64,000 nucleotides of DNA, taken from contig OZ220713.1 in assembly GCA_965116805.1 (NCBI GenBank), positions 2,041,853-2,105,852 of the forward strand. The letters are read 5' to 3'. The position numbers and the translations under genes were made by a program. Below the pieces are notes generated by a model. The model saw only the letters and a program-made list of their open reading frames with translations. It searched no databases and was not told the DNA's origin. This document shows, piece by piece, positions 3,149 to 33,810 of the stretch; position 1 is the stretch's first letter, and each line of letters begins with the position of its first letter. This stretch comes from Vicinamibacteria bacterium. GTDB lineage: Bacteria; Acidobacteriota; Vicinamibacteria; Marinacidobacterales; Marinacidobacteraceae.

Positions 3149-4630
3149 ATGGCCGAAACCGCGATCCTTCCCAACTTCATCGGCGGGAGCTACCTGGCCC
3201 CGTCCGCCTCCGAAACCCTGCCGGTCTTCAACCCCGCGACGGGGGAGGTCCTGTCCCGGACTCCCCTCTCGGGCGCCGAGGATGTGGGCCGCGCGGTGGC
3301 CAGCGCGAAGGACGCGCTCCGCGACTGGCGGGAGACGCCGCCGACCGACCGGGTGCAGCCGCTCTTCCGGCTGAAGGCGCTCCTCGAGCGCGATTTCGAG
3401 GAACTCTCGCGGTGCGTGACCACCGAATGCGGGAAGACCCTCGCCGAGTCCCGCGGCGAGATGCGGCGGGCCGTCGAGAACGTGGAGGTCGCCTGCGGGA
3501 TCCCCTCCCTGATGCAGGGCCGGGTGCTCGAGGACATCGCGCGCGGGATCGACGAGCTCATGATCCGCCAGCCGGTCGGCGTGGTGGCGGTGATCGCGCC
3601 GTTCAACTTCCCGGCGATGATCCCGTTCTGGTTCCTGCCCTACGCGCTCGCCTGCGGCAACACCGTCGTCATGAAGCCGTCCGAGAAGACGCCGCTGACG
3701 ATGCAGCGGGTCGCGGCGCTGATCGACGAGGCGGGCTTCCCGCCGGGGGTGGTCCAGGTGACTCACGGCGGGCACGAGGCCGTGGAGGCGCTCCTCGACC
3801 ACCCGGACGTCGCCGCGGTCAGCTTCGTGGGTTCCTCCCCGGTGGCGCGCGTCGTCTACGCGCGGGCGGCGGGGAACGGGAAGCGGGTCCAGTGCCAGGG
3901 CGGGGCCAAGAACCCGGTGGTGGTGCTGGAGGACGCCGACGTCGAGGCCGCGGTGTCCACCGTGGCCGAGAGCGCCTTCGGGTGCGCGGGGCAGCGGTGC
4001 CTCGCGGCCTCGCTGGCGATCACCGTCGGCGATGCCCACGCGCCGTTCCGCGAGCGGGTCAGCGCGGTGGCCGCGAGCCGGGTGGTGGGTTCCGGGCTCG
4101 ACGAAGCGGTGCACATGGGCCCGGTGATCCGGGGCGAGAGCCGGGAGCGGATCGAGCGGCTGATCGGGGTGGCGGTGGAGGAGGAGAACGCCCGCGCGGT
4201 GGTGGACGGCCGCGGCGTCCGGGTCCCGGGGCACGAGGACGGGTTCTTCGTCCGCCCCACCGTGCTCGACGAGCTCCCCGCGGAGGGAGAGATCGCCCGC
4301 ACCGAGATCTTCGGGCCGGTGCTCGGCATCATCCGGGTGGACAGCGTGGAGGACGCGATCGCCTTCGTGAACAGCGGCGACTTCGGGAACATGGCCTGCG
4401 TCTTCACGAACGACGGCCGGGCCGCGCGCCGCTTCCGCCACGAGGTCCTCACCGGGAACGTGGGGATCAACGTCGGCGTGGCCGCTCCGATGGCGTTCTT
4501 CCCGTTCAGCGGCTGGCGGGGCAGCTTCTTCGGCGACCTGCACGCCCAGGGCGCCCACGCGATCGAGTTCTACACGCAGACCAAGGTCGTCGTGGAGCGC
4601 TGGCCCCGGGACGCCTCGAAGCGCTTTTGA
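3149..4630 (+). CDS. mmsA: CoA-acylating methylmalonate-semialdehyde dehydrogenase (aldehyde dehydrogenase superfamily)
   Basis: [18 protein letters not shown]...; catalytic Cys region ...[15 protein letters not shown]...; typical MmsA N-terminus. 493 aa. The long upstream extension in the track (1517..) is a GC-driven artefact. Confidence 0.9.
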
Positions 4631-5343
4631 CGGCTGACCCCCCGCGCGGGAGGGGGATCCGCGGGCTGGTCCGCCGCTTCTGGCAGCCGGCGCTCTGGAC
4701 GCTGTTCGTTCTGAACGTCCTCCTCATGCCGCTGCTCTTCGGCGGGGCGGGGGACGAGCCGTTCGTACCGCCGGAGTGGATCCCGGCGAACCCGGCGGCG
4801 CTCGTTGCCGTGCACGCCCTCGCGGTGGCGGTGGCGGTGCCGAACACGATCTTCTGCCTCGCCGCCGGGTTCCTGTTCGGGCTGGGGCCGGGGATGTTCT
4901 ACGCCACTCTCGGCACCTTTCTCGGTTCGCTGGCGGCGTTCACGGTCGGCCGGCTGTTCCTCCGCCGCTGGCTCACCGGATGGCTCGGCCAGTTCCAATC
5001 GGCCACCCGGGTGCTCGCGGCGCTCGGTGATGCCGACGTGCGCACCGTCTGCCTGACCCGGCTCTCCCCCCTCTTCCCCTTCGCCTTCCAGAACTTCGGG
5101 TGGTCGGCGACTCCGGTTCGGTTCCGGAACTACGCGCTCGGCTCTCTACTGGCCGTCCCCGTGGGGGCCTCCTTCTTCGCCCACCTCGGGGCGGCAGGAA
5201 AGGCCGGCGCCACGCTCGCCACCGAGAGCTTCTCCTGGTCCGCCGCGCTCACCATCCTCGGCCTCCTCGCCACCTTCTACCTGATCCGCTGGATCTCCCG
5301 CGTCGCCAACGCCGCCCTCAAGGACGAACTCCCCACAGACTGA
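4627..5343 (+). CDS. TVP38/TMEM64 family (DedA-superfamily) membrane protein
   Basis: ...[47 protein letters not shown]... matches the TVP38/TMEM64 core. There is no ATG near the N-terminus. The proposed start is TTG at 4627 overlapping the mmsA stop, so the start is uncertain. Confidence 0.6.
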
Positions 5344-5351
5344 AGGGGTAG

Positions 5352-6003
5352 GGAGCGCCGGCCGGTTCTCGCGGTAGCGGCCTTCAGACCGGCACCCGCG
5401 GCGCCCCCCCACCGGGAGAACTGGCGCGCCGCGGAAGGGCGCAACGCCAATCCTCCCGACGGCTGAGCCAACGCTACGATCCCCTTGAGCAGGCGCTGTT
5501 CACAGCCTGATTCCCAAGCCTTCGGGAACAACCATGATCACCAGATTCTCCGAGGATGTGATTCCCATGACCGATTTCAAGACCAGTGCCGAGGAACGGG
5601 AGTTCATGCGTGCGGTCATCGCCGGTCTCGCCGACTTGGACGCTGGCCGGGATCTGTCCCTGGCGGACGCGCTGGAACGACTCGGCATCGGCTGACTCCC
5701 TGCCGACGGAGTCCTCCTACCGCCCCGAGCGGGTGGTCCAAACGCCGCGATTGCGCCGCCGGCTTGGAACGCCGGCTTCAGCCGGCACAGCCCGCCGCAG
5801 GCGGGCGGCGGGACAGACCTCACGCGCCGGGATCGCCTCGGCCGCGTGCGCCAATGTTCGCGGGGTAGCGACGAACCGCCCGCGGCCCTGCGGGCCGCTG
5901 TGCCGGCTGAAGCCGGCGTTCCAAGCCGTACGCGTCACCTCCGAGGGGAGCGCCGTGCGTGCCGGTCTGAAGGCCGCTACCGCGAGAACCGGCCGGCGGT
6001 CCC
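5352..6003. mobile_element. MITE-like or REP-bounded element: about 650 bp bracketed by about 45-bp terminal inverted repeats, with a nested second inverted-repeat pair
   Basis: GGAGCGCCGGCCGGTTCTCGCGGTAGCGGCCTTCAGACCGGCAC at 5352-5396 is the reverse complement of 5956-6003. A nested pair GGCTTGGAACGCCGGCTTCAGCCGGCAC (5758-5790) and GTGCCGGCTGAAGCCGGCGTTCCAAGCCG (5905-5937) lies inside. The same motifs recur at five or more other loci. Confidence 0.45.
5534..5695 (+). CDS. Small hypothetical protein (53 aa) with an antitoxin-like C-terminal motif, carried inside the MITE-like element
   Basis: MITRFSEDVIPMTDFKTSAEEREFMRAVIAGLADLDAGRDLSLADALERLGIG*. Too short for the ORF track. The ...LDAGR.LSL.DAL.RLGI ending resembles RHH/ParD-RelB-type antitoxin tails. 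Weak RBS. Confidence 0.3.
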   Translation: MITRFSEDVIPMTDFKTSAEEREFMRAVIAGLADLDAGRDLSLADALERLGIG

Positions 6004-6050
6004 TTGCGCCGCGGTGCGGGTAGGCTCCCGCACCGTACGAGGAGGCCGTC

Positions 6051-7289
6051 ATGCGCAGCATCGCTCTCCTGGCCGTCTGGCTCCTGACCGTGGCTCCGGT
6101 CGCGGCCCAGGAGGGCCCGGCGCTGGAGCCCATCACGCTGGCCGAGGTGCTGGCGTCCGGCCGGGCCGGATCGCCGGCGATCGCGGCGGCGCGGTCCCGC
6201 GAGCGGGCGGCCGCCGCTGCCGCCGACAGGGCCGGACGCTGGACCAACCCCTCCCTCGAGTTCCAGAGCGAGAACTGGGGGGCGCCGTCACCGGGTCTCC
6301 TCCACGACACCTTCGTCACCGTCAGCCAGCGGCTCGAGCTCGGCGGCAAGCGGGGCGCGCGGCGGGGAGCGGCGTTCGCTGGCGCGGAGGCGGCCCGGGC
6401 CGATGCCTTCGCCGCGATGCGCGCGGCCGAAGGGGAACTGGCGGCCCGTTTCCTGGACGCGGTCCGGCTCCGTGATCGGGCGCGCATCCTCTCGGAACAG
6501 CGCGACGCGCTCGACGAGCTGGTCCGCGTCCTCGAACGCCGGGTGGCCGAGGGATTCGCGCCGGACGCCGATCGCGCCCGCCTCGCCGCCGAACGGGCCG
6601 GGGTCGCCATTGCGGTGACGCGGGCAGAAACCGCGGCCGCCCGGGCGTTCCTCGATCTGCAGGCGCTCGCCGCCCTGCCGGACGGGAGCACCGCGGCGGC
6701 GCTCGTCCGGCCCGGGCCCGTCCCGCTGCCGGCCGGTGACGCGAAGGCGCTCGCGGCCGGCGCCGCGTCCGCGCGGCCCGATGTCCGCTCCGCGGCCGCG
6801 CGGGTCGAGACCGCGGAACGCGCGCTCCGCCTGGAAAACTCCCTGCGGGTCCCCGACCTGACCGTGAGGACCGGCCTGAAACGTACGCTCGACACGAACA
6901 CGGGCGTGTTGGCGGTGGGGGTGGGGCTACCGGTCTTCGACCGCAATCAGGTCGCCGCGACGCTCGCCCGCGGCGAAGCCCGCGCCGCCGAGCTCGAACG
7001 GGACTTCGTGACCCGGCGCGCCGAGGCGGACGCCACCGCCGCGCTCCTGACCGCCCGGCGGCTGGCCGAGGCGGCGGCCGGAGCCGGTGACCAGCTCCTG
7101 GAGCCCGCTACCATCGGACGGACCGCCATGCGATCTGCCTTCGACCTCGGCGCGGCGGATCCCCTCCGCGTGGTGGACGCCGAGCGCGCCTTCGCCGACG
7201 CCCGCCTGCTCGAAAACGACATTCAGATCGAAGCGGTCGCCGCCGCCATCGCGGCCCGCCTGGCGCTCGGGGAGGCGCCCCTGCCGTGA
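6051..7289 (+). CDS. czcC: TolC-family outer-membrane efflux protein (CzcC-like OMF)
   Basis: Signal peptide MRSIALLAVWLLTVAPVAAQ. Long Ala/Arg/Glu-rich coiled-coil repeats typical of OMF proteins. GGAGG RBS upstream. First gene of an OMF-MFP-RND operon. Confidence 0.85.
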   Translation: MRSIALLAVWLLTVAPVAAQEGPALEPITLAEVLASGRAGSPAIAAARSRERAAAAAADRAGRWTNPSLEFQSENWGAPSPGLLHDTFVTVSQRLELGGKRGARRGAAFAGAEAARADAFAAMRAAEGELAARFLDAVRLRDRARILSEQRDALDELVRVLERRVAEGFAPDADRARLAAERAGVAIAVTRAETAAARAFLDLQALAALPDGSTAAALVRPGPVPLPAGDAKALAAGAASARPDVRSAAARVETAERALRLENSLRVPDLTVRTGLKRTLDTNTGVLAVGVGLPVFDRNQVAATLARGEARAAELERDFVTRRAEADATAALLTARRLAEAAAGAGDQLLEPATIGRTAMRSAFDLGAADPLRVVDAERAFADARLLENDIQIEAVAAAIAARLALGEAPLP

Positions 7290-14629: not shown

Positions 14630-15040
14630 CGCTCGGAGCGCCGGCCTCCGGCCGGCATCGACCGCCCCCAGGCGGTCGAAACCGCACCCCGCCTCCCGCC
14701 CTCTCCGCAGCAACGGCTGGGACCGCCGGTCTTCAGACCGGCAGCGGCCCGCAGGGCCGCAAAGCGCGCGGCCCCGATCCGCGTGGATGACGCGTACGGC
14801 TTGGAACGCCGGCTTCAGCCGGCACGCGGCCCGCAGGGCCGCAGAGCGCGCGGCGCTGATCCGCGCTGATGGCGCGTACGGCTTGGAACGCCGGCTTCAG
14901 CCGGCACGCGGCCCACAGGGCCGCAGAGCGCGCGGCGTTGATCGCGGGGAGAACACGCACGGCTGGGAGCGCCGGTCTTCAGACCGGCACGCGCGGCGCC
15001 CCCCCACCGGGAGAACTGGCGCGCCGCGCGCTTCGTACGC
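14630..15040. repeat. Cluster of REP/BIME-like palindromic units, including two about 80-bp tandem copies
   Basis: GTACGGCTTGGAACGCCGGCTTCAGCCGGCACGCGGCC(C/A)CAGGGCCGCAGAGCGCGCGGCG occurs twice in tandem at 14797-14960. Also GCCGGTCTTCAGACCGGCAC and CGCGGCGCCCCCCCACCGGGAGAACTGGCGCGCCGCG hairpins. The same units are found at 5.35-6.0 kb, 28.6 kb, 33.4-33.8 kb and 37.2 kb. Confidence 0.8.
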
Positions 15041-15044
15041 GGAA

Positions 15045-16147
15045 GCTCCGGTCAATAGCGACGAGGCTCCGGTCGATATCGAGGGCCTCGGGCTCCCAGC
15101 TCCAGTCGATAACTTCGGAGGTCCGGTCGATATCGGGCGTCTCGGATTCCCAGCTCCGGTCGATAACGCCGGGGGTCCGGTCGATATCGGATGTCTCGGA
15201 TTCCGAGCTCCGGTCGATATCGAGGATCGGTGGCGGAGTTGGCAATAGGATGAGGGCGCGATGATGCGCCACCTGACCGCAATCGTCGAACGGGAGGCCG
15301 ACGGATACGTCGCCCTGTGCCCGGAAGTAGATGTCGCGAGCCAGGGAGACACCGTTGCCGAGGCACGCGCGAACCTGAAGGAAGCGCTGACCCTATTCTT
15401 CGAGACGGCCCCCGCAGAGGAAATCGACCGGCGACGTGTCTCGGGATTCCAGCTCCGGTCGATAACTGTGGGGGTCCGGTCGATATCGGGGGTCTCGGAT
15501 TCCCAGCTCCGGTCGATAACGTCGGGGGTCCGGTCGATATGCGGTGTCTCGGATCTCAACTCCGGTCGATATCGAGGGTTGGCGGCGACAGGTCCGGTCG
15601 ATATCGATGGAGCTCCGGTCGATAACGCCAGCCGGCCAGTCGAGCTCCGGTCGATAACGCGCAGCTCCGGTCGATATCCGGGGTCGGCGGGCTGGAAGCT
15701 CCGGTCGATAACGTGGAGCTCCGGTCGATATCCGGGGTCGGCGGGCTGGAAGCTCCGGTCGATAACGTGGAGCTCCGGTCGATATCCGGGGTCGGCGGGC
15801 TGGAAGCTCCGGTCGATAACGTGGAGCTCCGGTCGATATCGGAGGCCGGCGGGCTGGAGGCTCCGGTCGATAACGTGGAGCTCCGGTCGATATCCGGGGT
15901 CGGCGGTTGGAAGCTCCGGTCGATAAACGTGGAGCTCCGGTCGATATCGGAGGCCGGCGGGTGGAGGCTCCGGTCGATAACGTGGAGCTCCGGTCGATAT
16001 CGGAGGCTGGCGGGTGGAGGCTCCGGTCGATAACGCGGTGTAGGAGACGCCCGTAGAGTCGGAGTTGGGAGACACCAACTTTTGCGCACGGGGGAGGCGA
16101 GGCTCCGGTCGATAGCGATGGTCAGCGAAGGGAGCTCCGGTCGATAA
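15045..16147. repeat. Tandem array of about 31 copies of a 16-bp motif GCTCCGGTCGATA(A/T)CG alternating the ATAACG and ATATCG variants, in two clusters (15045-15221 and 15452-16147). Includes a 54-bp higher-order repeat of about 6 copies at 15699-16030.
   Basis: Directly visible: ...gctccggtcgataacgtggagctccggtcgatatccggggtcggcgggctggaa... repeated with period 54. Copies are spaced 20-33 bp apart. The core contains the palindrome CGATATCG. One isolated copy sits at 17079-17095. Confidence 0.9.
15261..15926 (+). CDS. HicB-like (UPF0150) antitoxin-domain protein. The N-terminal roughly 58 aa form a genuine domain. The rest of the ORF is read-through of the tandem array.
   Basis: MMRHLTAIVEREADGYVALCPEVDVASQGDTVAEARANLKEALTLFFETAPAEEIDRR matches the HicB/UPF0150 N-terminal fold. 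From residue about 60 the frame is translated repeat (QLRSITVGVRSISGVSD...). No HicA partner adjacent. The true C-terminus is unknown. Confidence 0.4.
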   Translation: MMRHLTAIVEREADGYVALCPEVDVASQGDTVAEARANLKEALTLFFETAPAEEIDRRRVSGFQLRSITVGVRSISGVSDSQLRSITSGVRSICGVSDLNSGRYRGLAATGPVDIDGAPVDNASRPVELRSITRSSGRYPGSAGWKLRSITWSSGRYPGSAGWKLRSITWSSGRYPGSAGWKLRSITWSSGRYRRPAGWRLRSITWSSGRYPGSAVGSSGR

Positions 16148-16148
16148 C

Positions 16149-16931
16149 ATGAGACTCGTGACTCTTCGTCGAGCGGCGCTTGGCGCCGTGCTGGCGCTCA
16201 TGGCGGTCGTGGTGACGCTCGCCGTGATCCGGCGGTCGGCCACTCCGCCAGCGCCCACGACTTCGGCAGACGAGGCGCTTGCCCTGGAGTCACCGTCCTA
16301 CGGCACGCGTGAACCAGCGGTGGACGCTGCCGAGCCGGAAACCGAGGTCCCCGATGAAGTCCTGGCCGTTCAAACGCCACCGGACAGCAGTCCGGCGGGA
16401 CTCCTGGTGGCAGCCGCCGGGGCGGGCGACGCCGCGCGCGTTCGGGAACTCCTCGCTGCCGGAGTGCCGCCGGATTCCGAGAGTCAGGGAACGTTCGCCA
16501 TTCACCGCGCCGCGGTCGCTGGTTCGGTCGCGGTACTCCAGGTTCTCGTGGAGGCCGGAGCGCACCTCGAAGCGCTCAACCAGTACGGGCAGACGGCCCT
16601 GACCCAGGCTGCGTTCTACGGCAATGCGGAAGCGGTGGTGTTCCTGCTGAGCGCGGGCGCCGACCCGAACGCCCACGCCGAACCGAACCATCAGACACCC
16701 CTGAGGGCGATCCTGAGCGGCTGGACAATGACTCTCTCGAGTCGCTCGCGGCTCCCGCCGAAGGACGAGGAACGCTTCGCGGCGGCCTGGGCGCTCATTC
16801 AGGCGGGGGCCGATCCACACTTCGGTCCCGGAGACCATCCACCGCCAGTGGTGATGGCGGAAGCCCTCGGCGGCGAAGTCGGGCGGCTCTTCGCCCAGGA
16901 TCCGACCGATCCCGGGCAGCGCCCGCGCTGA
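16149..16931 (+). CDS. Ankyrin-repeat protein with N-terminal signal/TM anchor
   Basis: MRLVTLRRAALGAVLALMAVVVTLAV...; repeated ANK units (..TPLHRAA..G....VLVEAGA..). The ATG sits immediately after the last array copy (...gctccggtcgataacATG). Confidence 0.8.
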   Translation: MRLVTLRRAALGAVLALMAVVVTLAVIRRSATPPAPTTSADEALALESPSYGTREPAVDAAEPETEVPDEVLAVQTPPDSSPAGLLVAAAGAGDAARVRELLAAGVPPDSESQGTFAIHRAAVAGSVAVLQVLVEAGAHLEALNQYGQTALTQAAFYGNAEAVVFLLSAGADPNAHAEPNHQTPLRAILSGWTMTLSSRSRLPPKDEERFAAAWALIQAGADPHFGPGDHPPPVVMAEALGGEVGRLFAQDPTDPGQRPR

Positions 16932-28599: not shown

Positions 28600-28860
28600 G
28601 TCCCTTCAGGGGTTCGGCGTCATCAGTGCGGGTTTCGCGCTCCCGCGTGGCTCCCGCCGGGAGGACTGGGCCGGCCGGTGGCCGGCGGTCCGAGCCGGTG
28701 CGTCATGCGGGCGAGCACCACCGTGCGGTTCGCGGCCTGCGGCCGCGGTGCCGGCTGAAGCCGGCGTTCCAAGCCGTTGCGCGATGCGGAGGAACGGCCC
28801 TGTGCGGTTCGCGGCCTGCGGCCGCGGTGCCGGTCTGAAGACCGGCGCTCCCAGCTGAGG
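28600..28860. repeat. Composite REP/BIME-like repeat. An about 100-bp unit (CATCAGTGCGGGTTTCGCGCTCCCGCG...GGGAGGACTGGGCCGGCCGG...) plus GCCGGCTGAAGCCGGCGTTCCAAGCCG and GTGCCGGTCTGAAGACCGGCGCTCCCAGC hairpin units.
   Basis: About 85% identical in inverted orientation to 33540-33660. Hairpin units are shared with 5.4-6.0, 14.7-15.0, 33.5 and 37.2 kb. Confidence 0.8.
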
Positions 28861-33409: not shown

Positions 33410-33810
33410 AGAAGACGCGAACCCGCCCGTCTGGCGGCCGCCAAACCGCCTTCCGGACTGGATGCCGTGATGGATCATCGAGGTGTTTGCGCCCTCCCGG
33501 CGAGTTGAGTCCTTCCCGCCGCCCGCCTTCGGCGGGCTGTGCCGGTCTGAAGACCGGCGCTCCCAGCCGTGGGCGTCATCTCCGCTCGGAGCGCCGGCCT
33601 CCGGCCGGCCCAGTCCTCCCGGTGGGGGCCGCGCGGGAGCGCGAAACCCGCGGTGATGGCGCCAGGCCATGCGAACGGGAGAACCGCCGCCGGCTCCGTT
33701 GGCGGGTGCGGTTTCGACCGCCTCTCGGCGGTCGATGCCGGCTGGAAGCCGGCGCTCCGAGCCCGCAAAACGGTAGAGAGTCCAAGCGGTTGCGGCGCCG
33801 GCGCTCGGGG
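33410..33810. repeat. Composite REP/BIME-like repeat (inverted copy of the 28.6 kb unit plus hairpin units)
   Basis: 33539-33570 TGTGCCGGTCTGAAGACCGGCGCTCCCAGCC. 33560-33660 is the reverse complement of the about 100-bp unit at 28630-28730. 33727-33750 GCCGGCTGGAAGCCGGCGCTCCGAGCC. Confidence 0.8.

Follow-up and report, generated by a model that had tools for sequence, protein, structure and literature searches.

Within a window of 64 kb, by which we mean the whole stretch of DNA that was analysed, we studied the gap that opens behind the stop codon (5343) of a gene of the VTT/TVP38 family (PF09335) and closes at 6051, where an outer-membrane efflux gene (PF02321) starts. An RND efflux operon begins with this PF02321 outer-membrane factor, and the space in front of it is, as the preliminary description had it, completely occupied by a structure of inverted repeats around a small open reading frame (ORF). 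The outer inverted repeat proved to be real and longer than reported: its arms, at 5350-5409 and 5945-6004, measure 60 nt instead of about 45 nt, are 93% complementary and enclose a spacer of 535 nt. A second pair, nested inside the first, was likewise recovered (arms of 49 nt at 5760-5808 and 5880-5928, 88% complementary, spacer of 71 nt), with the correction that its right arm had been placed about 7 nt out of register, at 5905-5937. Both outer arms carry an identical 32-nt core, for which 0 matches are expected in shuffled sequences and which occurs twice in the whole window. No target-site duplication was found around 5350-6004, the flanks AAGGGGT and TGCGCCG being without a direct repeat.

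Each of the four arms is part of a REP unit. The unit of the left outer arm extends from 5350 to 5433 on the plus strand and was delineated by repeat search and folding; it begins 6 nt past the VTT stop and forms two hairpins, of which hairpin A is of a subtype with a 19-nt insert (CCGGTTCTCGCGGTAGCGG). The right outer arm (5945-6004, minus strand) is a unit of the same 19-nt-insert subtype in the opposite orientation. The nested arms belong to units at 5758-5832 (plus strand; repeat families I6 and I8 of the repeat search, and fold) and 5868-5937 (minus strand; repeat search, fold and comparison with relatives), which together make up a REPIN-like head-to-head doublet that is also present in the related loci L001, L002 and L011. 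Between the left outer unit and the doublet, all on the plus strand, lie a conserved leader of the small ORF (5434-5533), identified by alignment to the promoter/operator region of phd-parE loci, the ORF itself (5534-5695), and the degenerated beginning of a parE gene (5700-5742), recognised in alignments with L009, L034 and L035.

The ORF starts with ATG and encodes 53 aa, as described before, and its derivation from an antitoxin that has no partner had also been seen correctly; the family had not, for the tail taken to be RHH/ParD-like is by its protein matches of the Phd/YefM family. Pfam, NCBIfam and PADLOC gave no match to the 53-aa sequence. A search of 5.8 billion proteins, on the other hand, returned 97 matches, a handful of which are orthologues of 53, 42 or 66 aa, while some 85 are PF02604 proteins of roughly 89 aa (E down to 2.6e-18) that cover both ends of the ORF. 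These proteins align over 98% of the ORF with one gap of 36 residues: relative to them, the codons for residues 18-53 have been lost in frame, whereas those for residues 1-17 and 54-89 have been kept. The lost segment aligns with residues 15-48 of the Phd protein of phage P1, that is, with its folded N-terminal domain; this placement comes from a PDB sequence search with the 89-aa homologue, whose Phd matches are weak (E about 0.02-0.04) and serve for mapping the segment alone. In an AlphaFold2 (AF2) model of the stub (pLDDT 71) residues 1-18 are predicted as coil and residues 19-37 and 43-49 as helices. The residues that are invariant among the stubs are those that are invariant in the full-length antitoxins with a ParE partner, and we take the C-terminal part to be the toxin-binding part, by homology with the Phd/YefM antitoxins.

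Translation could also begin at Met12 (5567), which is preceded by GAGGA at a distance of 10 nt and is the start chosen by several gene callers; the Shine-Dalgarno sequence ahead of the first ATG is weak. A promoter scan of the leader and the region found no sigma-70 consensus. The leader does contain TACGAT (5483-5488), which aligns with TACAAT of the intact phd-parE loci, and its operator-like CTGTT-ACAG palindromes have partly decayed. The stub resembles the Phd/YefM-ParE systems in being homologous to the 89-aa PF02604 antitoxins at the same locus in sister lineages, but differs in that the toxin is absent, residues 18-53 are missing, and with them the core of the N-terminal dimerisation/DNA-binding fold, and the score stays below the Pfam threshold.

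The complete system is still found in relatives. In L009, a 2.1-Mb contig of a more distant relative, the site downstream of the DUF5916-Aldh-VTT genes holds an intact 89-aa Phd (PF02604, E=1.2e-14), followed 4 nt further by a ParE of 104 aa (PF05016, E=3.2e-16). Across the sister lineages, 4-10 nt separate the PF02604 antitoxin gene at this locus from the PF05016 ParE gene downstream of it. L035 also carries both genes, there adjoining PQQ/beta-lactamase-fold genes such as are also found to the right of the site in L002, L003 and L012, and in L034 Phd is accompanied by a ParE that is cut. Against these alleles, the window phd shows a gap of 108 bp in frame in the nucleotide alignment. L010 possesses an allele of 66 aa with the same right-hand junction codon as the stub, from which it appears that the deletion probably took place in two successive steps. 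Of the phd-parE junction TGACTCC-ATG-CCGA, the window retains a version in which CTG (5700-5702) has replaced the ATG; it is followed by about 40 degenerate bases, so that about 45 bases of parE are left in all, and then by a REP. This REP, of the nested left arm, is orthologous to the one that lies downstream of parE in L009. The start of parE (about 45 nt) is visible by nucleotide alignment only: tblastn with ParE, run over the element, the window and 213 kb from related loci, detected nothing except the intact alleles. The locus thereby offers a clean stepwise decay series, from 89 aa with ParE via 66 aa to 53 aa with nothing but a stub of parE.

Two further observations concern the intact module of L009. 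A REP-type sequence of about 107 nt flanks it on both sides in direct orientation (3812-3918 and 4591-4698); the two copies are 81-83% identical and lie 779 nt apart. Furthermore, 12 nt (CGGCCGGTTCTC) within the part of the L009 phd that is deleted in the window (4090-4140) recur in the 19-nt insert of the REP arm (within 5360-5385), and a GCGG(C)GTAGC-like stretch comes after them. Since the insert subtype is dispersed over many unrelated loci, we consider this identity to be probably due to chance.

All orthologues with enough flanking sequence are positioned directly downstream of DUF5916-Aldh-VTT. Leader and ORF are present in every relative at this site, and the arms vary independently of them. 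Both repeat pairs are found in L001, which represents the same strain. L011 has a layout like that of the window, but its outer arms are of another subtype and 78% complementary. In L002 the left REP is a different one, the nested doublet is kept and the right outer arm is absent; L003 has a pair of REPs upstream and lacks them downstream, there is one REP in L012, and the copies that flank the intact toxin-antitoxin (TA) genes in L009 are direct, not inverted. The ORF itself carries no indels among its alleles, although the adjacent leader carries several. Its dS (0.20-0.47) matches that of the flanking Aldh and VTT genes (0.15-0.35), which indicates that it was inherited vertically together with its neighbours.

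Some features of the site may be mentioned separately. The outer arms of the window (5350-5409/5945-6004) are both of the insert subtype, and those at the orthologous positions of L011 (3823-3868/4400-4445) are both of the plain TCTCCAGA subtype, a paired change that suggests gene conversion between the arms or a concerted replacement of the REPs. On the right-hand side the gene order changes precisely where the nested doublet ends (about 5937-5945 in the window, about 3395-3405 in L002): the window, L010 and L011 share the efflux operon as their right flank, and L002, L003, L012 and L035 have a set of 381-aa/PQQ/beta-lactamase-fold genes there. The REPs may mark a rearrangement breakpoint. 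Several metagenomic contigs (L006-L008) stop no more than a few hundred bases away from the ORF; evidently, the REPs break assemblies.

Both repeat types are dispersed through the window, as had been proposed. A repeat search of the whole window combined with motif scans yielded about 15 related REP units in 4 intergenic clusters, namely 5350-6004, 14631-15028, 28616-28855 and 33495-33762, and additional units were present in every related locus that was examined. A unit measures 60-85 nt and folds into 2-3 short GC-rich hairpins of 6-8 bp, for example GCCGG(T)CTTCAG(A)CCGGC and, after it, GCGGCCC-GCA-GGGCCGC or one of its variants. The units occur as singlets, as direct tandems (with a period of 82 nt at 14713-14993) and as head-to-head doublets. 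Among adjacent pairs within 250 nt at the sampled loci the orientation ++ was observed 9 times, +- 7 times, -- 6 times and -+ once, so that head-to-head (+-) neighbours are 7 times commoner than -+ neighbours. The core of the nested arms recurs at 14798, 14880 and 28745, and 5378-5433 is 96% identical to 14973-15028 (repeat family D18). The 85-nt unit of the left arm was also encountered in L023, L026 and L032.

An exact-match scan with one genome per species located 21 additional loci with the 19-nt-insert subtype, spread over about 8 Acidobacteria/Acidobacteriota/Vicinamibacteria MAGs. At all 21 the arm is solitary, even with up to 5 mismatches allowed in a partner, and when the whole region of 707 bp was compared by BLAST with these loci, the REP parts matched and the leader and the ORF never did. 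Where genes could be called, 11 of the insert-subtype copies begin within 15 nt past the stop of a co-oriented gene and 14 within 54 nt. Being solitary and set just after co-oriented stops, the arms behave as REPs do and not as the ends of a MITE. The stop that adjoins the insert-subtype copies (L013-L033 and the window) is TAG in 13/14 cases, often as GTAG; in such a GC-rich genome TGA would be expected to dominate. GTAG was found within about 15 nt upstream of 9/23 copies of the insert subtype, while the other subtypes are without it. In classical REPs this tetranucleotide is the hallmark of recognition by RAYT proteins. The stop codon may possibly be supplied by the 5' end of the REP.

The units have several properties in common with the REP/BIME sequences: they are short, GC-rich, imperfect palindromes, strictly intergenic, dispersed and numerous, they occur singly, in tandem or as inverted pairs, usually just past a co-oriented stop, and their subtypes turn over at orthologous sites. 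They differ in size (about 60-85 nt with 2-3 hairpins, compared to 20-40 nt for classical REPs) and in their host, an uncultured lineage of the Acidobacteriota, whereas the classical examples come from E. coli, Pseudomonas and Stenotrophomonas. A REPIN is defined as two inverted REPs of the same group around a spacer, forming a hairpin (PMC3116915, PMC3337134). The nested pair has this architecture, and its arms pair in the predicted fold, but most of the sampled copies are singlets or direct tandems, and the outer pair is unlike a REPIN in that its spacer of 535 nt holds a gene. Judged by their position and orientation, the REPs probably act as selfish repeats of the RAYT type and/or as RNA hairpins at 3' ends. 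A search of Rfam gave nothing in the region at the gathering threshold or at E<=1. The idea of an integron cassette with attC sites, which small TA-like ORFs between structured repeats might bring to mind, was discarded: the repeats are without R''/R' core sites of the type GTTRRRY, and elsewhere the 85-nt unit separates ordinary convergent genes that have no TA gene in their vicinity.

Taken together, the region is very probably the decayed remnant of a Phd/YefM-ParE type II TA system in a REP-rich intergenic stretch, and not a discrete mobile element. The ancestral site downstream of DUF5916-Aldh-VTT would have contained a phd gene (89 aa) and a parE gene (about 103 aa). In the lineage of the window, parE was deleted save some 45 degenerate bases, and phd lost 108 bp in frame, probably in two steps, by which the core of the N-terminal dimerisation/DNA-binding fold was removed. 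REP units of the dispersed family lie on both sides, with plus-strand units at 5350 and 5758 and minus-strand units at 5868 and 5945. Because the outer two share a subtype and point towards one another, they could be read as 60-nt "terminal inverted repeats". Of this account, the alignments and comparisons show the homology, the synteny, the two deletions, the dispersal of the arm as solitary copies and the turnover of REPs among lineages.

It remains to be considered whether the stub is still of use to its host. Pairwise NG86 dN/dS values range from 0.19 to 0.60 for the stub and from 0.06 to 0.13 for the neighbouring genes of the same clade. With our own implementation of the GY94-F3x4 codon model, applied to the seven truncated alleles, an omega of 0.34 was obtained (LRT against omega=1, p about 7e-6); for the C-terminal 35 codons the estimate was 0.29 (p about 2e-5), for the N-terminal 16 codons 0.53, which is indistinguishable from neutral (p=0.17), and for the Aldh gene as a control 0.03. 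As the F3x4 frequencies may be biased in a GC3-rich relic, neutral simulations were added (HKY evolution from the consensus along a star-like tree, 1500 replicates). The pooled NG86 ratio was 0.46 in the observed alleles and 0.92-1.04 under neutrality (5th percentile 0.63-0.71), and the observed value was reached by at most 1/1500 replicates. These p-values are on the optimistic side, given that the code is our own, the alignment small and the simulation tree star-like. The stop-free frame was dropped as an indication of selection: all seven alleles stay stop-free in 37-51% of the neutral replicates. The omega of the stub exceeds that of the neighbouring genes by a factor of 4-10, which means that constraint has been relaxed. 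As far as can be judged from substitution patterns, the C-terminal part of the stub appears to be under purifying selection that is relaxed but real.

The alternative is that the 53-aa ORF is the fragment of a pseudogene, dead though as yet undisrupted, at a locus without a present function. Such a fate would fit the disappearance of the toxin and of the DNA-binding core, the missing family and promoter matches, the neutral behaviour of the first 16 codons, and a frame whose survival in 7 lineages has the neutral probability just given. Against it speak the excess of synonymous over non-synonymous changes (LRT p about 1e-5), an ORF free of indels next to a leader that has several, and a C-terminal conservation pattern identical to that of the intact antitoxins. 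We regard a dead fragment as possible but rather unlikely.

That the stub is a retained orphan mini-antitoxin we hold to be plausible, with an assessment that runs from below even to about even. The stub would then still be expressed, and selection would keep it as a peptide that has no DNA-binding domain but retains the toxin-binding C-terminus. Such a peptide could neutralise toxins of the ParE type that are encoded elsewhere or arrive on mobile DNA. Antitoxins of the PaaA2 type are likewise without a DNA-binding domain. In its most specific form, which we put forward tentatively, this proposal holds that a product of 53 aa (42 aa from Met12) with a free C-terminal ParE-binding helix-turn-helix is expressed constitutively and serves a clade of Acidobacteriota, after the loss of the cognate toxin, as a trans-acting shield against ParE toxins of paralogous or incoming TA modules, in an anti-addiction or anti-defence role. 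Against a functional stub it can be held that it has no family match of its own and no consensus promoter, and that neither the window nor the 213 kb from related loci revealed a ParE target. The stub resembles orphan antitoxins in being solitary, in its origin from a degraded TA pair, in the presumed toxin-binding C-terminus that has been kept and in its signs of selection; it differs from them in being internally deleted instead of full-length. An anti-addiction role of orphan antitoxins is debated (reviewed in PMC7354431). If the stub is functional, it would be a natural antitoxin cut down to its toxin-neutralising segment and kept without the toxin, and as such would bear on that debate (PMC7354431).

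As for the repeats, it could be supposed that they work as a unit at the level of RNA or DNA, either by insulating or terminating transcription from VTT into the czc-type efflux operon or by occluding the mRNA of the ORF. The 707-nt region indeed folds far beyond shuffled sequences (z=-12.7, at -440 kcal/mol), and in this fold the outer arms are paired; the + ... - layout exists in all three lineages that are flanked by the efflux operon (the window, L011 and L010). The low folding energy follows trivially from the pairing of the repeats, and single REP units are no more stable than their shuffles (z -0.9 to -1.8). Moreover, the outer arms of L011, of the other subtype, are 78% complementary only, the scan gave no match to an intrinsic terminator and no Rfam family was hit. 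The preliminary description had also raised the possibility of an insulator that forms a giant cruciform; cruciform extrusion is implausible across a spacer of 535 nt. A joint function of the nested repeats is in our opinion improbable.

Least of all can 5350-6004 be what the preliminary description suggested, a non-autonomous mobile element of the MITE kind, for which the 60-nt arms would be the terminal inverted repeats and the small ORF the cargo. In favour of it are the length and 93% complementarity of these arms, the derived 19-nt insert that they have in common and an arm-ORF-arm layout that is similar in L011 and loosely so in L010. Against it, there is no target-site duplication at the ends, the arms are ordinary REP units that stand alone at all 21 other loci (about 8 related genomes), elsewhere just after stop codons, and what lies between them is a decayed TA locus that was inherited vertically and has a dS equal to that of its neighbours. 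Neither these loci nor the 64-kb window yielded another full-length copy, and a single full-length copy is the condition under which the preliminary description itself would take the region for a REP cluster. Empty sites were not seen in the relatives, where the interior is present throughout and only the arms vary; leader and ORF occupy the same syntenic position in L002, L003 and L012, which are arm-less. The second refuting condition of the preliminary description, a small ORF that is not conserved, does not hold, for the ORF is conserved. With the MITEs of the Correia/NEMIS, ERIC and RUP type the region has in common that inverted repeats bound a few hundred bp of intergenic DNA, but here the arms are independent repeat units and what they enclose is the remnant of a gene.

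The relic TA locus invaded by REPs brings together two kinds of sequence that are both known, and what is new is the occurrence of a REP family in an uncultured lineage of Acidobacteriota, together with a degraded TA system with an internally deleted orphan antitoxin. The case calls for caution in REP-rich genomes of high GC content, where two REPs of one subtype, facing each other across an intergenic region, look like the inverted ends of a MITE. A comparison of orthologous loci quickly settles which of the two is at hand.

Finally, a second relic that resembles an antitoxin was noticed elsewhere in the window. An array of 1.1 kb (15040-16150), with the REP cluster at 14631-15028 on one side and on the other a gene with ankyrin repeats (16149-16931), contains 29 copies, all on the same strand, of a 14-nt box, CTCCGGTCGATA(A/T)C, for which 0.05 copies are expected by chance. 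The AAC and ATC forms of the box alternate in tandem units of 54 nt, and the array looks like a set of iterons or protein-binding sites. The double box was not detected in an exact-match scan of the JGI metagenomes. Inside the array, 15261-15440 encodes what resembles the N-terminus of HicB, although both matches are below the cut-off (HicB_lk_antitox, E=0.007; DUF7387, E=3e-4), and its reading frame runs on into the repeats up to 15926. Like the Phd stub, this HicB-like relic is located just downstream of a REP, in this case the copy at 14973-15028.
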